From NCBI GenBank assembly GCA_947646585.1, contig CANSHD010000002.1, positions 136,997 to 200,996 of the forward strand: DNA of 64,000 bases, written 5' to 3'. The notes beneath the pieces are model-generated. The model saw only the letters and a program-made list of their open reading frames with translations. It did no database searches and had not been told where the DNA came from. The stretch comes from an uncultured Alphaproteobacteria bacterium (GTDB lineage: Bacteria > Pseudomonadota > Alphaproteobacteria > Rs-D84). The translations under genes were made by a program, and so were the position numbers. Positions 8,748 to 15,645 of the stretch are shown here, one piece after another. Within the stretch, counting starts at the first letter, position 1; every line of letters begins with the position of its first letter.

Positions 8748-8800
8748 GTGTGCGGACACGTTTGTGGTGGGAAATAAGAAAACGCCCGAATGGGCGTTTT

Positions 8801-9118
8801 TTATCTTAAACCCTTTGCACGGCAACAGCTTGAGGCCGCAGTTTTCCAATCAGAGTACTGTTTTGACGGGTCGCGCAGGTCACGCCAGGCCTGCCATCCG
8901 CTGCATCTTTTGTTTGCGCCCGTGCCGGTGCATTTGGCATAGCGGCGCAGAGAACATGTCTGATTTGAAACTTTGCCCGTGTCGGTGGTGCATTTTACGA
9001 CAACGTTCTGGTTTTTTGCGTCGTTTTGCCCCAGTTCTTTGGACGACATTACCTGGTACGCATTTGCCGTGGTCAGTGCCGCGGCACAGATTAAAATTGC
9101 CGTTAATATTTTTTTCAT
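8801..9118 (-). CDS. Small secreted Cys-rich protein (105 aa)
   Basis: Signal peptide MKKILTAILICAAALTTANA and 8 Cys. A terminator hairpin (aaaacgcccgaatgggcgtttttt) lies just 3' of it. Confidence 0.5.
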   Translation of the reverse strand: MKKILTAILICAAALTTANAYQVMSSKELGQNDAKNQNVVVKCTTDTGKVSNQTCSLRRYAKCTGTGANKRCSGWQAWRDLRDPSKQYSDWKTAASSCCRAKGLR

Positions 9119-9183
9119 GGCGACGTCCTTCCTTTGTTACATACAAATTATAAGTAATTTTACTACAAAATACAACGGGTATT

Positions 9184-10854
9184 TTATCGGGTCAGGGGCT
9201 GGCTCGGCTCCACATGACAGCCGTTTTCGCGCATCAATTTTACCCCGTTCATCCAGCCCTTTAAAAAGACTTTGCGTTTCGGATTATGCTCGGTAATGCT
9301 AACGTAATACCGTTGCAGAGTGTCCCAATACGCGTTATGCAAATCGCCGTTAAAATTCTCGGCGGCCTGAATCAGTTCGCTGTCAACCTTGCCTGTTTCC
9401 TTTAATCCCAGCGTCTTTTGCAGCTTTTTTACGCCCGCTCCCGGGCCGGATGCGAAATCGCCGCGCAGTACGTCGCCGCGAATAGAATCGGGCAGTTTGT
9501 CAATGCCCTTGGCCTTGTAAAATCGTTCGTATGTGCGGTCTTCGGCGCCGCCGCGCGTTAATTTGCGCACGTCTATGTCCCGATTGTAATTTTGTGCATA
9601 TCCGTAACATGTATAGCCGCCCGGATCGTTGGGATGACTGCCGCAGTCGCCTTCGACGCGAAATATTTGAACCATCATTTTTTCAAATGCGGGGTCTATC
9701 TGTTCGTATTTACCGGTTGTTAATATTTTGTTTTTGAAAACATTACTGCGCGTGGACGGTGTGCACGGGCCGTCATGTACGCGGTTGTTCGCCATTACCG
9801 TGGCCGGGGCCGATGACCTATTCGGAACCGCAGCGGGTGCGGCGGTGACAGGTTCCGGTCCCGTCGTCGGGGTGGTTGCGGGCGCCATTGCAATGGTTGG
9901 CGTGTTTTGCTGTGCGGGTGTGTTGGCGGTGGGATTTTGTGACGGTTGGGTGCCGGATTGCCCGCCTTGGTTTTGTTTTGCGGGATTGTCGCCGATTGCG
10001 ATAATTTCCTGTTCGCGGCCACGGTCTTGGGGGCATCTGGTCTCATCAAAATACTTGTCGCAGTATTCGTCATTCGACATCTGTATCGCATCAATCTGGC
10101 GCCGTGCCTCAAGTGTTTCAAGTTGACGCGTTAAGGCTTTTTCCTCGCTTTCCACCTTTATACCGTTATACGCCTTTGCATCCTTGTACGGTGCGTATCC
10201 TGCGGCCAGGTTCTCCATACGGTCCGCGAACGATACGTCGTTTATCGTTGTCGGGAATGCCGCTTTTGCTATATGCTCCGTACCCGCACCATTCTGCGAT
10301 TGTAATTGCTGTAACTCTATCGCCCGTTCTTTTACGTCATTGGCCCAATCGGGGACCTTTGACGCATAGGGATTATTTATTTTAAATTCATTCTGCTGTT
10401 GTATATTAGCCGCACCGGTTGCCGCCGGGAATGCAGACGGTTGCACAACGTTTGCGTATTGTTTTACGTAAGTATCAAAAGCTGTATCAATATACCCCGC
10501 GCAGGACGATGCATAGTTATGCCCCGGCATACGCGACAGCTCCAGCATAATTGCGGGCCGTACATCCGCCACCCGCATGCCGTTACAGTTATTGTTCGCG
10601 GCACATTGTGATGCGACTAAATTTGTAACGATTGTTTGGCAATCCTGTGTATCAACCTCAGGCCCTGTGACATACACAGGCGATGGCATGATGCGTTTAT
10701 TATACTGCTGACCCGGGCTCCAGAACGGATTGGTGGAATAGTTTTGAACATTTTGAATCTGGCCGTATTGCGACAGCGGTACCGCGCGCGCGGCGCAGCA
10801 ACATGCGGTTGCTGCGCAATAAAATGTTAAAAGACCAAATGTCGTTTTTTTCAT
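9184..10854 (-). CDS. Secreted two-part protein. Unknown N-domain (paralog of 14146..15060), Pro/Thr/Gln linker, then a C-terminal GH108 lysozyme-like plus PG_binding_3 module.
   Basis: The C-terminal EGDCGSHPNDPGGYTCYGYAQNY...YWDTL...GVKKLQKTLGL...KGWMNGV matches the GH108 and peptidoglycan-binding-3 pattern (EGGYxxDPxDPGGxTxxGI ... GW.NR). Start taken at MKKTTFG (10854), forming an ATGA overlap with the upstream stop. Confidence 0.7.
   Translation of the reverse strand: MKKTTFGLLTFYCAATACCCAARAVPLSQYGQIQNVQNYSTNPFWSPGQQYNKRIMPSPVYVTGPEVDTQDCQTIVTNLVASQCAANNNCNGMRVADVRPAIMLELSRMPGHNYASSCAGYIDTAFDTYVKQYANVVQPSAFPAATGAANIQQQNEFKINNPYASKVPDWANDVKERAIELQQLQSQNGAGTEHIAKAAFPTTINDVSFADRMENLAAGYAPYKDAKAYNGIKVESEEKALTRQLETLEARRQIDAIQMSNDEYCDKYFDETRCPQDRGREQEIIAIGDNPAKQNQGGQSGTQPSQNPTANTPAQQNTPTIAMAPATTPTTGPEPVTAAPAAVPNRSSAPATVMANNRVHDGPCTPSTRSNVFKNKILTTGKYEQIDPAFEKMMVQIFRVEGDCGSHPNDPGGYTCYGYAQNYNRDIDVRKLTRGGAEDRTYERFYKAKGIDKLPDSIRGDVLRGDFASGPGAGVKKLQKTLGLKETGKVDSELIQAAENFNGDLHNAYWDTLQRYYVSITEHNPKRKVFLKGWMNGVKLMRENGCHVEPSQPLTR
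10055..10785. repeat. Direct repeat copy 1 (about 730 bp, roughly 95% identical to 14265..14995)
   Basis: Nucleotide alignment by eye of 10141-10380 against 14341-14580 shows only scattered mismatches. The encoded N-domains are near-identical. Confidence 0.7.
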
Positions 10855-14146: not shown

Positions 14147-15060
14147 TACTGCGCCTTTTTTAATGCATTAACCAGCGCCTGGATTACGCGCTGTCTTTGT
14201 TGGTCATTTGCTTGTTGTTGCTGTTGCTGGGTTTGGCAATATTGTGTGTCACTTGGATATTTTTCGCAATATTCCTGTGGATTCATTTGCAACTTGTCCA
14301 GTTGTTGTCGGGCCTGGGCCATTTGCAGGCGGCGTGTCATCGCCTTTTCCTCGCTTTCCACCTTTATACCGTTATACGCCTTTGCATCCTTGTACGGTGC
14401 GTATCCTGCGGCCAGATTCTCCATACGGTCGGCGAACGATACGTCATTTATTGTTGTCGGGAACGCCGCCTTGGCTATATGCTCCGTACCCGCCCCATTC
14501 TGCGATTGTAATTGTTGTAACTCTATCGCGCGTTCTTTTACGTCATTAGCCCAATCGGGTACCTTTGGCGCATAGGGATTGTTTATTTTAAATTCATTCT
14601 GCAGTTGTATATTCGCCGCACCTGTTGCTGCCGGGAATGCGGACGGTTGCACAACGTTTGCATATTGTTTTACGTAAGTATCGAATGCAGTATCAATATA
14701 CCCCGCACAAGATGATGCATAGTTATGCCCCGGCATACGTGACAGCTCCAGCATAATCGCAGGTCTGACATCCGCCACCCGCATGCCGTTACAGTTATTG
14801 TTCACGGCGCATTGTGATGCGACTAAATTTGTAACGATTGCTTGGCAATCCTGTGTATCAACCTCCGGCCCGGTGACGTACACGGGTGACGGCATGATGC
14901 GTTTATTATACTGCTGACCCGGACTCCAGAACGGGTTGGTGGAATAGTTTTGAACGTTTTGAATCTGGCCGTATTGCGACAGCGGCGCCACCGCATACGC
15001 GGCACTTATGCCAGCCATGGCACATAGGCTAACGATAAAATGCCGAAAGTTTATTCTCAT
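14146..15060 (-). CDS. Secreted protein. Paralog of the N-domain of the GH108 protein, with a Gln-rich tail.
   Basis: Start taken at MRINFRHFIVSLCAMAGISAAYA (ATG at 15060). About 240 aa are more than 90% identical to residues 33-275 of 9184..10854. The ORF-track N-extension to 15240 overlaps cpaA and is unlikely. Confidence 0.6.
   Translation of the reverse strand: MRINFRHFIVSLCAMAGISAAYAVAPLSQYGQIQNVQNYSTNPFWSPGQQYNKRIMPSPVYVTGPEVDTQDCQAIVTNLVASQCAVNNNCNGMRVADVRPAIMLELSRMPGHNYASSCAGYIDTAFDTYVKQYANVVQPSAFPAATGAANIQLQNEFKINNPYAPKVPDWANDVKERAIELQQLQSQNGAGTEHIAKAAFPTTINDVSFADRMENLAAGYAPYKDAKAYNGIKVESEEKAMTRRLQMAQARQQLDKLQMNPQEYCEKYPSDTQYCQTQQQQQQANDQQRQRVIQALVNALKKAQ
14265..14995. repeat. Direct repeat copy 2 (pairs with 10055..10785)
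   Basis: See copy 1. Confidence 0.7.
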
Positions 15061-15083
15061 TCCTGTATTCCCCGGTGCTTTAA

Positions 15084-15569
15084 TTATAACAAAAACGCAA
15101 TTCCAAGGAAAGACAAAATTCCACCAATTACAAAGAACGGTGCAAAAGGGATATATTTCTGTTTTTTCCAGTACCCCCAGCCGGCCCCCAAAACGCATGC
15201 TGCGACCAGCGCCCATGCCAGTCCCGTCGGCCCCAGCCATATGCCGCCCGTCGCGATAAGCTTTATATCGCCCATTCCAATCGGGGCGACGACGTCTGGG
15301 TTCTTTTTGCGCATTACATAGTCAAACGCGAACCCGACCAGCGCCGCCAGCGCGTATCCGAACGCGGCGCCCATGACGGCGGCCTGGGTGTTGTGGGGCC
15401 ACGGGAAAAAGGTCGTTATAATCAACCCAGCGATAAGCAACGGGAACAAAAAAGCGTCCGGAATTATGCGCCGGCGCCAGTCCGCGGCGGATATTTGGTA
15501 CATGCACCACAGGGACCCTGCCAATAAAACGCCGAAGAATCCGTAATATAATATTGTATAATAATTCAT
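15084..15569 (-). CDS. cpaA: Type IV prepilin peptidase, A24 family, short CpaA/TadV-like form
   Basis: Starts MNYYTILYYGFFGVLLAG, preceded by a good RBS (aagggg). Carries the GMGDIKL motif of A24 peptidases. About 162 aa and multi-TM. Confidence 0.75.
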   Translation of the reverse strand: MNYYTILYYGFFGVLLAGSLWCMYQISAADWRRRIIPDAFLFPLLIAGLIITTFFPWPHNTQAAVMGAAFGYALAALVGFAFDYVMRKKNPDVVAPIGMGDIKLIATGGIWLGPTGLAWALVAACVLGAGWGYWKKQKYIPFAPFFVIGGILSFLGIAFLL

Positions 15570-15645
15570 ATTTTTCCCCCTTGCCTTTCGATTCGGAACT
15601 ATGCTAATATTATTACATAATAAAGTATAACAGGGGTTTTGTAAA

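Follow-up and report, generated by a model that had tools for sequence, protein, structure and literature searches.

The window analysed here is a stretch of 64,000 nucleotides from an uncultured Rs-D84/Ca. Enterousia alphaproteobacterium. Between tRNA-Val and the cell-cycle gene gcrA it carries six genes, all on the minus strand and tightly packed (8801-15569). The tRNA gene belongs to a plus-strand cluster, Leu(cag)-Ala(cgc)-Leu(taa)-Val(cac), at 8331-8717 (ARAGORN, Rfam), and gcrA, which encodes a sigma-70 cofactor, is found on the plus strand at 15646-16254 (Pfam GcrA, E = 4.4e-28; synteny). The first gene of the operon encodes an A24 peptidase of 161 aa (15084-15569). It is followed by an N-domain protein of 304 aa (14146-15060), a 498-aa protein in the third slot (12650-14146), a 588-aa protein (10851-12617), a 556-aa fusion of the N-domain with GH108 and PG_binding_3 (9184-10854) and a small Cys-rich protein of 105 aa (8801-9118). 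The ORF check placed all six genes where a sequence-only reading had put them. Of the domains that it had named, A24 and GH108 were found by Pfam while PG_binding_3 falls just below the cutoff, and the N-domain is present twice, at 88% amino-acid identity over 258 residues.

The junctions were checked base by base. The 588-aa and fusion genes share an ATGA overlap (10851-10854), the N-domain and 498-aa genes overlap by 1 bp (TAATG, at 14146), and 23 nt separate the A24 and N-domain genes (15061-15083), all three as previously claimed. The remaining gaps are 32 nt between the 498-aa and 588-aa genes (12618-12649) and 65 nt between the fusion and the 105-aa gene (9119-9183). Further, tRNA-Val and the stop codon of the 105-aa gene are 83 nt apart, and two terminator-like hairpins lie within this interval. 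One of them, AAAACGCCC-ATTC-GGGCGTTTT with a T-rich tail (8779-8800, minus strand; consensus scan and sequence reading), comes immediately 3' of the last stop codon and is probably the end of the transcription unit. At the opposite end, promoter and motif scans and locus comparison delimit a control region (15570-15645) between the divergent A24 and gcrA genes. It contains a promoter-like TTTACA-17-TATTAT (15645-15617, minus strand) and a ribosome-binding site, AAGGGGG. These sites at the two ends, together with a gap between the A24 and N-domain genes that has a median of 23 nt in 68 loci, point to a single transcription unit. The operon transcript probably starts in the control region shared with gcrA and stops at the terminator ahead of tRNA-Val, and the A24 gene is probably co-transcribed with the genes downstream of it.

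The earlier reading had regarded the operon as an accessory island, horizontally acquired next to a tRNA cluster that served as its integration site. The operon does adjoin four tRNA genes, it includes a GH108 lysozyme domain of phage type, and relatives carry insertions at the same cluster. However, the order gcrA <-> A24 -> N-domain -> variable gene -> 588-aa -> 105-aa is kept, in the same place, in 67 of the 70 species-level Rs-D84/Enterousia genomes with enough flank, which is the kind of conservation that the reading itself had named as its refutation. In most related loci tRNA-Val(cac) is directly 3' of the 105-aa gene and the same four tRNAs flank the operon. The composition is native: the GC of the operon is 0.49-0.53 against 0.46-0.57 in housekeeping genes, GC3 is 0.51-0.64 against 0.59-0.67, and codon-usage correlations are similar. 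The dN/dS of the operon genes (0.05-0.18) indicates strong purifying selection. No integrase and no att-like repeat was found at the locus, and no relatives of the operon were found in viral contigs or plasmid collections. The insertions seen in relatives lie inside or beside the tRNA cluster and leave the operon untouched; the cluster is an actual insertion hot spot in these genomes. Horizontal acquisition is thus extremely improbable and was rejected. We conclude from the comparison of loci that the operon is part of the core genome of Rs-D84, a little-known order of uncultured gut alphaproteobacteria, is specific to this order and has been inherited vertically; it is not an island.

The A24 peptidase (Pfam PF01478 Peptidase_A24, E = 2.9e-15) is a short, prepilin-type GxGD aspartyl enzyme. 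Both catalytic motifs, with D30 (ADWRRRIIPD) and D101 (GMGDIKL), are invariant in an alignment of 76 orthologues, and annotated A24 peptidases on plasmids are about 32% identical to it. It had been called CpaA-like: the A24 domain and the size fit this label, which rests on nothing else. As in Tad/Flp loci (Caulobacter pilA-cpaA-F, tadB/C; Aggregatibacter tadV), the enzyme is about 160 aa long, lacks a methyltransferase domain and keeps both Asp motifs, and here it heads an operon of envelope proteins. Unlike in these loci, the proteins downstream of A24 bear ordinary Sec signals, no Flp prepilin or pseudopilin was found, and the operon and window contain no CpaF/TadA ATPase, CpaC secretin or TadB/TadC platform domain. 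Signal peptides of class III (prepilin) were absent in a motif scan that covered the 64-kb window and about 1.5 Mb of related loci, the 40 larger window ORFs scanned contain no ATPase or secretin domain, and neither an outer-membrane barrel nor a pilin was found in the operon or the window. The view that this is not a Tad locus therefore holds for the scanned window. Moreover, a complete trans-envelope machine is not encoded in the operon or window, since the ATPase, secretin, barrel and pilin are all missing there.

To our knowledge, all characterised A24 peptidases cut prepilin-like substrates, and neither the operon proteins nor those of nearby ORFs have a class-III signal peptide. A24, and possibly the 105-aa protein, could then be unrelated to the other four proteins and be held beside them by frozen synteny, with A24 serving a Tad, type IV pilus or competence system elsewhere. 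The region from rpsA to lpxB is collinear throughout the clade, and no fusion joins A24 or the 105-aa protein to other genes. Genomes of the order (Ca. Enterousia and relatives) measure roughly 0.75-1 Mb, and because the whole region is syntenic in such reduced genomes, adjacency alone is weak evidence that A24 leads the module. Against frozen synteny, the short gap to the N-domain gene leaves no space for a terminator and a promoter. A weak further point is that type IV pili are reported for another lineage only and go unmentioned for Rs-D84, in a paper that does not discuss Tad systems (PMC12306168). On balance we consider this explanation unlikely.

The 304-aa N-domain protein carries a signal peptide, the motif SQYGQIQNVQNYSxNPFW, which is invariant, and a four-Cys helical core (residues 69-133, predicted with pLDDT >90) that is followed by a long C-terminal helix. 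The same domain recurs in the 556-aa fusion, where a signal peptide and an N-domain copy (residues ~26-283) are linked by a Pro/Thr/Ala/Gln-rich segment to GH108 (Glyco_hydro_108, E = 3.5e-9) and a PG_binding_3-like C-terminal domain (23.4 bits, under the 24.6-bit cutoff). In 23 of 24 loci checked, the GH108 gene contains either N-domain residues ~186-283 or the entire domain; at the remaining locus there is only a fragment. Within one genome the free and fused copies are 83-94% identical (seven genomes), while distant orthologues share about 50%. The duplicated DNA block has about 92% identity and sharp edges. The putative docking copy evidently undergoes concerted evolution with the free one.

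The fusion matches an endolysin among the PHROGs (2.3e-28), and the best solved relative of its C-terminal 188 residues is Brucella SagA (7DNP, E = 1.3e-8). The chain alignment with SagA continues beyond the hydrolase domain across the PG_binding_3 region, and both enzymes combine a hydrolase with a peptidoglycan-binding domain. The catalytic residues are kept: E401, D410 and T415 (codons 9652-9654, 9625-9627 and 9610-9612) align with Glu17, Asp26 and Thr31 of SagA. SagA is not free but tethered, an arrangement that would keep its activity local (PMC8334348). The operon enzyme appears to be tethered as well, although by other means: SagA has a C-terminal membrane anchor, while here there is an N-terminal Sec signal and a copy of an operon-encoded adaptor. 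Other differences are that no type IV secretion genes are nearby and that no PhiA-like inhibitor was recognised here. Further, the muramidase is found at only 19 of 70 loci and is dispensable at the locus in about 73% of species, indicating that local wall cutting, at least from this locus, is not essential to the module.

The 588-aa protein begins with a signal peptide and an N-terminal region of alpha/beta type. Next come a Gly-rich hydrophobic segment (~267-285), a Lys/Arg-rich helical region of ~165 residues and a second, short hydrophobic stretch (~454-465), and the C-terminal region is highly conserved. We take it to be the conserved core of the module. The 498-aa protein has a comparable plan. 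Its signal peptide is followed by an N-terminal region that contains Cys, a hydrophobic segment rich in Gly and Ala (~234-262) and a Lys-rich stretch; the C-terminal region contains Cys as well, so that Cys residues flank the hydrophobic segment on either side. Both had been described as secreted. The signal peptides are present, but the two proteins are not simply secreted: in each, a strong hydrophobic segment rich in Gly and Ala lies inside the chain, with a Lys/Arg-rich stretch after it, which means that they are probably membrane-anchored. The second membrane crossing is weakly hydrophobic in both, and their topology is to that extent an inferred one. That GH108 can be fused to the 588-aa protein at its C-terminus speaks for a periplasmic location of this end.

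The 498-aa type is found in 14 of 80 loci, and elsewhere the third slot is taken either by a 588 paralogue or by a protein of the Gly-zipper/Cys-rich type. The third-slot proteins of most relatives contain GxxxGxxxG runs, as in Gly-zipper_YMGG, and the 498-aa protein of the window aligns with these relatives through its Gly-rich segment. The match of the relatives to PF13441 is below the cutoff (E about 4e-3, 17 bits against 28.9), and unlike that family the third-slot proteins are far larger, have no lipobox and contain Cys-rich extra domains. At the other extreme, the 105-aa protein is the most conserved of the locus (median identity 75% throughout the clade, dN/dS 0.07-0.18). Its signal is of the signal-peptidase-I type (…TANA|YQ), the mature protein contains six Cys, and the pI is 9.7.

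Each of the two large proteins has a hydrophobic Gly-rich hairpin plus long helices. They might therefore be exported proteins of the translocon or pore-forming-toxin kind, inserting into the membrane of a partner cell to obtain metabolites. The clade has small genomes, is presumed to rely on partner cells and has no standard transporters (PMC12306168). The 498-aa protein shows a sub-threshold match to Pfam SseC (E = 8.6e-4, 19.4 bits against a cutoff of 30.2), and there are weak helical fold matches to PaxB, XaxA, IpaB and SipB. However, every one of these matches is below significance and most reflect generic coiled coils. The proteins have ordinary Sec signals and an outer-membrane route is not encoded at the locus. 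A basic stretch right after the hydrophobic segment suits an inner-membrane anchor, and a muramidase fused to such a protein is more easily understood as acting on the wall of the producing cell. This role is very unlikely.

The N-domain, 498-aa, 588-aa and 105-aa proteins have no sequence match in Pfam, NCBIfam, PHROG or PDB, and for these four of the six families no relatives are detectable outside the clade. Models of the 588-aa and N-domain proteins gave no fold match, a weak negative as the models are only partly confident (pLDDT 60 and 69). In agreement with the sequence-only reading, the envelope module thus matches no described system. What ties its members together are gene fusions. 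Besides the N-domain/GH108 fusion, the 588-aa protein is fused to GH108 in P0031/L009, the N-domain to a 588 paralogue in P0335/P0373/L092, and the N-domain to the third gene in L035, L047, L051, L081 and L086, among others. On the strength of these fusions we regard the N-domain, third-slot and 588-aa proteins and the muramidase as one module.

Dedicated wall-lytic enzymes are known from several trans-envelope machines, among them VirB1, EtgA, FlgJ and R64 PilT. The likeness lies in the physical coupling of a wall hydrolase to an envelope assembly of several proteins; here the coupling is known from fusions of GH108 to two different subunits. The known enzymes differ in being mostly lytic transglycosylases or of the FlgJ type and in working on known machines, while the partner proteins of GH108 here belong to none.

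A clue to when the operon is expressed comes from the control region. A block that is conserved clade-wide, TAGCATAGTTCCGAATCGAAAG (15606-15585, minus strand), has a GANTC site (15590-15594) at its centre. The position of this site is fixed in 47 of 47 loci, and the GANTC-centred block is unique within the window. The region is compact: in 45 of 46 loci, 54-76 bp separate the A24 gene from gcrA. Expression of the operon is probably coupled to the cell cycle through this element beside gcrA.

Such a control region, shared with the divergent gcrA, would also suit a cell-cycle-coupled complex for peptidoglycan remodelling or morphogenesis (in division, elongation or polar growth) that stands in for canonical factors lost from these reduced genomes, with A24 as a mere neighbour. 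The proteins are periplasmic or membrane-bound, the muramidase is tethered to the module by fusion, and the module is apparently universal in the clade and strongly constrained, as a housekeeping role predicts. What fits poorly is that most loci lack the muramidase and that the third subunit is hypervariable, with type swaps between species that are unusual for core morphogenesis proteins. In addition, no similarity to divisome or elongasome families was found, and throughout the clade A24 and the gene after it are translationally adjacent. We consider morphogenesis a real possibility, if a somewhat improbable one.

Our tentative preference, held at a little short of an even call, is for a lineage-specific, peptidoglycan-crossing envelope assembly that is encoded by a conserved Rs-D84 core operon and expressed with gcrA. 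The operon brings together an A24 peptidase, an optional wall-cutting enzyme and four families of envelope proteins, none of which matches anything described. The peptidase, its active site intact, may mature subunits encoded elsewhere or cut unconventional substrates. The N-domain protein would be a Sec-exported adaptor with a disulfide-bonded helical core and a long C-terminal helix; the third-slot protein a fast-evolving Gly-rich and Cys-rich membrane-associated subunit that determines specificity; the 588-aa protein a strongly conserved membrane-anchored subunit; and the 105-aa protein a very conserved small basic product with six Cys. Together, the operon proteins would form one envelope complex with an inner-membrane anchor. 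A SagA-like GH108 muramidase, present in about one species in four, would join, docking by adaptor mimicry so that the sacculus is cut only locally, a logic shared with Brucella SagA and with the lytic enzymes that work specifically for secretion systems and pili. The complex may support a structure that crosses the peptidoglycan, perhaps for surface display or contact with a partner cell.

Relatives of the 588-aa protein are encoded in 247 species-level genomes. Among the 80 of these carriers that were listed, 79 are MAGs of uncultured Alphaproteobacteria, Proteobacteria, Ca. Enterousia, 'Rickettsiales' or unnamed bacteria. The sole exception among the 80 carries the label Bacteroides fragilis.

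Between the four tRNA genes at 8331-8717 and gcrA (15646-16254, plus strand) lie six closely packed genes, all on the minus strand. In the order of transcription they encode an A24 peptidase of 161 residues (15084-15569), a 304-aa protein that carries the N-domain (14146-15060), a 498-aa protein (12650-14146), a 588-aa protein (10851-12617), a 556-aa fusion of the N-domain with GH108 and PG_binding_3 (9184-10854) and a Cys-rich protein of 105 residues (8801-9118). Start and stop codons were inspected directly, and the positions and overlaps proposed by the sequence-only reading hold: two neighbouring pairs overlap, by an ATGA at 10851-10854 and by 1 bp at 14146, and the other three are separated by gaps of 23 nt (15061-15083), 32 nt and 65 nt. 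A promoter-like site, TTTACA-17-TATTAT (15645-15617), is found at one end of the six genes and a terminator-like hairpin (8800-8779) at the other. Pfam recovers the proposed domains, namely Peptidase_A24 (PF01478, 2.9e-15), Glyco_hydro_108 (3.5e-9), GcrA (4.4e-28) and a borderline PG_binding_3 (23.4 bits, cutoff 24.6). The N-domain does occur twice in the operon, with 88% identity across 258 residues.

The same reading had taken the locus for an accessory island at a tRNA integration site, and asked whether the interval from tRNA-Val to gcrA is empty in other genomes. It is not empty. When the proteins of the window were compared by tblastn with 80 related loci, 67 of the 70 species-level genomes with enough flank showed the same operon in the same order: the 685-aa protein that follows gcrA, gcrA itself, and divergently from it the A24 peptidase, the N-domain protein, a third gene, the 588-aa protein, in some genomes GH108, and the 105-aa protein. 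In most loci tRNA-Val(cac) follows about 50-100 bp after the 105-aa gene. By the measure that the sequence-only reading itself had set, clade-wide conservation of gene order, the accessory island therefore fails. Further, GC, GC3 and codon-usage correlation of the operon are within or near the range of nine housekeeping genes in the window, Pfam finds no integrase domain among the six genes, and no att-like direct repeat of the tRNA-Val 3' end occurs within 8300-16300. No relatives of the operon were found in a scan of IMG/VR viral contigs or by tblastn among 72,556 plasmids. Against two close relatives every operon gene has a dN/dS of 0.05-0.18, similar to gcrA. The operon is native, lineage-specific and strongly constrained; we are confident that it belongs to the core genome, and horizontal acquisition followed by integration at the tRNA is extremely improbable.

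The insertions that are seen in relatives sit beside or inside the tRNA cluster, outside the operon. In locus L007 they consist of a PLD-family gene and a C5 DNA methylase (12153-14143), and in L010 (12534-15753) and L014 rhamnose-pathway genes lie between tRNA-Leu(taa) and tRNA-Ala. The cluster is an insertion hot spot also in L024, L036, L045 and others, and in some species it is partly inverted.

Relatives of the 588-aa protein number in the hundreds; none is annotated, and all come from gut metagenomes. In a scan with one genome per species they were found in 247 genomes. With a single exception, the 80 of these that were listed belong to uncultured Alphaproteobacteria, Proteobacteria, Ca. 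Enterousia, 'Rickettsiales' or unnamed-bacterium MAGs, and one of the listed genomes is circular, with 958,618 bp. Only 127 related clusters came out of an exhaustive HMMER search over 1.84 billion cluster representatives. The farthest of them (about 30% identity) proved to be paralogues that occupy the third slot of this operon in genomes of this clade. They were considered as an outgroup system and rejected for that reason, and the family is thus, as far as the searched databases show, limited to the Rs-D84 lineage. The one exception among the listed genomes has the label 'Bacteroides fragilis'; its contig CAVGNU010000009.1 (L063) carries a full operon of the Enterousia type including gcrA and is probably mis-binned.

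Members of this lineage, the order Rs-D84, are widespread in the guts of animals, among them humans, livestock, birds and termites. Their genomes, of about 0.75-1 Mb, are described as lacking amino-acid, nucleotide and lipid biosynthesis, standard transporters and flagella; their lifestyle is presumed to depend on a partner, and they are thought to feed off other cells (PMC12306168). The papers on Enterousia that were consulted make no mention of the operon. Given genomes of some 900 genes, presence in essentially every species and strong purifying selection, the operon is unlikely to be dispensable.

When the six proteins and the two large flanking proteins were searched against Pfam, NCBIfam and PHROGs, only A24, GH108/PG_binding_3 and GcrA were recognised. 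The 588-aa, 498-aa and N-domain proteins have no sequence match in the PDB, either as single sequences or as profiles, and Pfam gives no consistent match over 31 members of the 588-aa family and none for its distant relatives. The suggestion that this is an envelope module unlike any described system is in agreement with these searches. In the AlphaFold model of the 588-aa protein the mean pLDDT is 60, with residues 52-250, 300-385 and 520-588 fairly well predicted. For the N-domain protein it is 69, and the model predicts a helical core with four cysteines (residues 69-133, pLDDT above 90) and a long C-terminal helix. The peptidase and the muramidase add new members to known families; for the assembly as a whole, and for four of its six proteins, no described counterpart is seen, as judged with models that are confident in part and with PDB-based libraries. 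Novelty here means that no relation to described systems is detectable, and does not imply a new mechanism. Should the 588-aa protein and the N-domain prove to belong, remotely, to a known family, what is left would be a lineage-specific variant. Uncultured lineages often have conserved operons to which no function can be assigned.

All operon proteins carry ordinary signals of the signal-peptidase-I type. For the 498-aa and 588-aa proteins, which had been described as secreted, the signal peptide stands and free secretion does not: both contain a strong internal hydrophobic segment rich in Gly and Ala, followed by a stretch rich in Lys and Arg, which makes membrane anchoring the more likely arrangement. 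That the operon exports proteins which insert into membranes is very improbable in our judgement. It would involve the same segments, and no significant similarity in sequence or fold was found to type III translocators or alpha-pore-forming toxins (SseC, IpaB, XaxAB).

Conservation differs along the operon, with a median identity of 60% for the 588-aa protein and of 75% for the 105-aa protein, the highest in the region. The third gene changes type between species and is often fused to the N-domain. A protein of the 498-aa type is found there in 14 of 80 loci, most loci have a Gly-zipper/Cys-rich protein with about 11-13 cysteines, and a few have a paralogue of the 588-aa protein. This gene lies at 12650-14146 in the window, at 8850-10001 in L007 and at 9075-10004 in L010, and was also followed in L041, L072, L074 and L092. 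A role of the 105-aa protein as a lysozyme inhibitor of the PhiA/MliC kind was considered and dropped, since it has no MliC/PliC match and its gene is kept in species without the GH108 gene.

Several independent gene fusions connect four of the operon's proteins. In P0031 (803 aa, locus L009) GH108 is attached to the 588-aa protein. The N-domain is joined to a 588-aa paralogue that takes the third slot in P0335, P0373 and L092 (a locus), and to the third-slot protein in a number of loci, among them L035, L047, L051, L081 and L086. Among the GH108 proteins that were checked, the whole N-domain or its residues ~186-283 are present in 23 of 24 loci, and the 24th is only a fragment. The N-domain, third-slot, 588-aa and GH108 proteins are thereby connected, and very probably they act together.

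The two copies of the N-domain resemble each other more than orthologues do. In the seven genomes having both (10006-10779 versus 14212-14985 in the window, and loci L012, L013, L015, L036, L058 and L089) the free and the GH108-fused copies are 83-94% identical, whereas orthologues from distant genomes share only about 50%. In the window the similarity forms a DNA block of about 650 nt with sharp edges and about 92% identity. This points to concerted evolution of the copies, presumably by gene conversion, and the simplest reading is that both would have to fit the same partner.

The muramidase domain matches PF05838 with 37.5 bits (cutoff 21.2) and phrog_315, a phage endolysin family, with 2.3e-28. 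Its best solved relative is Brucella SagA (7DNP, 1.3e-8), in which Glu17, Asp26 and Thr31 are catalytic (PMC8334348); E401, D410 and T415 align on these residues. By sequence, the 556-aa protein fits the GH108 layout of the SagA/TtsA type, that is Glu-Asp-Thr followed by a helical, borderline peptidoglycan-binding domain. The GH108 gene is present at the operon locus in only 19 of 70 species. The pairing of SagA with a T4SS, and the dedicated lytic enzymes of other secretion systems and pili, suggest by analogy that the operon may in part work alike.

In the A24 peptidase the catalytic residues D30 (ADWRRRIIPD) and D101 (GMGDIKL) are invariant in 76 orthologues, and the active sites of both enzymes of the operon are predicted to be intact. 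The peptidase shares about 32% identity with annotated A24 peptidases borne on plasmids. Class-III signal peptides (G/xxxxE[YF] and a hydrophobic helix) were sought by a motif scan of all ORFs; there is none in the 64-kb window and no credible one in 95 sources of about 17 kb each. Neither the operon proteins nor the 40 larger ORFs of the window that were scanned match T2SSE, Secretin or T2SSF in Pfam, and the CpaF/TadA ATPase, the CpaC/RcpA secretin and the TadB/TadC platform proteins are absent from the same set. What Pfam does find in these ORFs is housekeeping: lpxA, lpxB, corA, adk, rpsA, tig, argS and ruvB, together with tolQ, secA, dnaE, mraW and phosphoglycerate mutase. Within the window the view that this is not a Tad locus is thus supported. 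With Tad/Flp (type IVc) loci the operon has in common a short A24 peptidase with two catalytic Asp and nothing else; the other defining features that can be tested, i.e. prepilins, ATPase, secretin and platform, are lacking.

Two substrates inside the operon were considered and rejected. One is the 588-aa protein, cut where its second hydrophobic stretch meets the cytoplasm; a Glu at +5 is lacking there, and the stretch has only about 12 residues. The other is the N-domain protein, whose invariant motif SQYGQIQNVQNY was weighed as a class-III site; the sequence after its Gly is hydrophilic. It should be noted that public gene calls miss the A24 gene in L007/L008 (7357-7920) and L094 (8666-9217), where a spurious antisense ORF of 183-187 aa is called instead, so the peptidase would be missing from the annotations of those genomes.

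Neither the A24 peptidase nor the 105-aa protein is seen fused to other operon products, so what ties these two to the module is the structure of the operon. Over 68 loci the median distance from the A24 gene to the next is 23 nt. Whether the peptidase is functionally part of the module appears to us evenly balanced. It could instead serve a pilus system encoded elsewhere, the gene order being frozen synteny; we consider this unlikely.

The divergent region between gcrA and the A24 gene is 54-76 bp long in 45 of 46 loci. Within it lies a block, TAGCATAGTTYCGAWTCGAAAGGCAAGGGGGAA, that hardly varies among members of the clade with genomic GC anywhere from about 39% to 52%. At the centre of the block a GANTC has a fixed position in 47 of 47 loci. 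In the window the block reads TAGCATAGTTYCGAWTCGAAAGG (15585-15606, GANTC at 15590-15594) and occurs once; it is likewise found in the intergenic regions of L012-L090. Rfam identifies tRNAs only, with no known RNA family over the block, and GANTC is mildly depleted in the window (144 sites, expected 175 ± 13). In Caulobacter, GANTC is the methylation site of CcrM that conditions GcrA-dependent promoters. The region shows, as a motif conserved across species, the GANTC feature of such GcrA/CcrM-type promoters, and the block is a candidate cis element common to gcrA and the operon that is kept across the clade. The operon could accordingly be imagined as a wall-remodelling complex coupled to the cell cycle. 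This possibility, to which the muramidase domain is also relevant, we hold to be unlikely, though slightly less so than frozen synteny.

Our tentative preference, held at less than even confidence, is a wall-spanning assembly. The N-domain, third-slot and 588-aa proteins would form a periplasmic complex anchored in the inner membrane, which the muramidase may enter by mimicking the N-domain adaptor. Once docked, it would cut the sacculus only locally, as has been proposed for SagA. The complex would carry a structure across the wall, for surface display or for contact with a partner, and the variable third-slot subunit would set its specificity. The A24 peptidase might mature subunits encoded elsewhere or act on unconventional substrates. 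A more specific version is that of an Rs-D84-specific envelope apparatus for contacting or exploiting partner cells, with a 588-aa/105-aa core, a third subunit that gives specificity and an A24 peptidase acting on non-canonical substrates from the operon; we regard it as improbable.

In general the operon is a concrete, delimited candidate, open to testing, for an envelope structure on which an abundant gut lineage with minimal genomes may base its way of life, and the candidate would thereby be linked to the GcrA cell-cycle circuit. Four of its protein families are seen in no other group, its prepilin-type peptidase has no visible substrate, its muramidase may dock by means of a subunit copy, and one subunit switches type between species.

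A few other proteins in the window deserve mention. The 685-aa protein (16278-18335, plus strand) always follows gcrA, 24 nt downstream in the window, and matches no family. An N-terminal coiled coil is followed by a Pro-rich linker, a single membrane helix (~455-473), a Pro/Glu-rich region and a Cys-rich tail, a layout that we take to recall polar scaffold proteins such as PodJ. On the other side, between the tRNA cluster and lpxB, a secreted protein of 869 residues (4923-7532, minus strand) with 30 cysteines and a Thr/Ala/Arg-rich N-terminal repeat region also has no family match; it is conserved in the clade with a median identity of 59%. Division and cell-wall (dcw) genes such as ftsI are normally expected after mraW (52793-53641); directly after it there are three ORFs of 207, 797 and 400 aa (54232-58499, plus strand) with no Pfam match. 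Finally, a 1422-aa protein (41980-46248, plus strand) combines a Listeria-Bacteroides repeat (Flg_new) with an ephrin-receptor-like Cys-rich domain and may be a surface adhesin.
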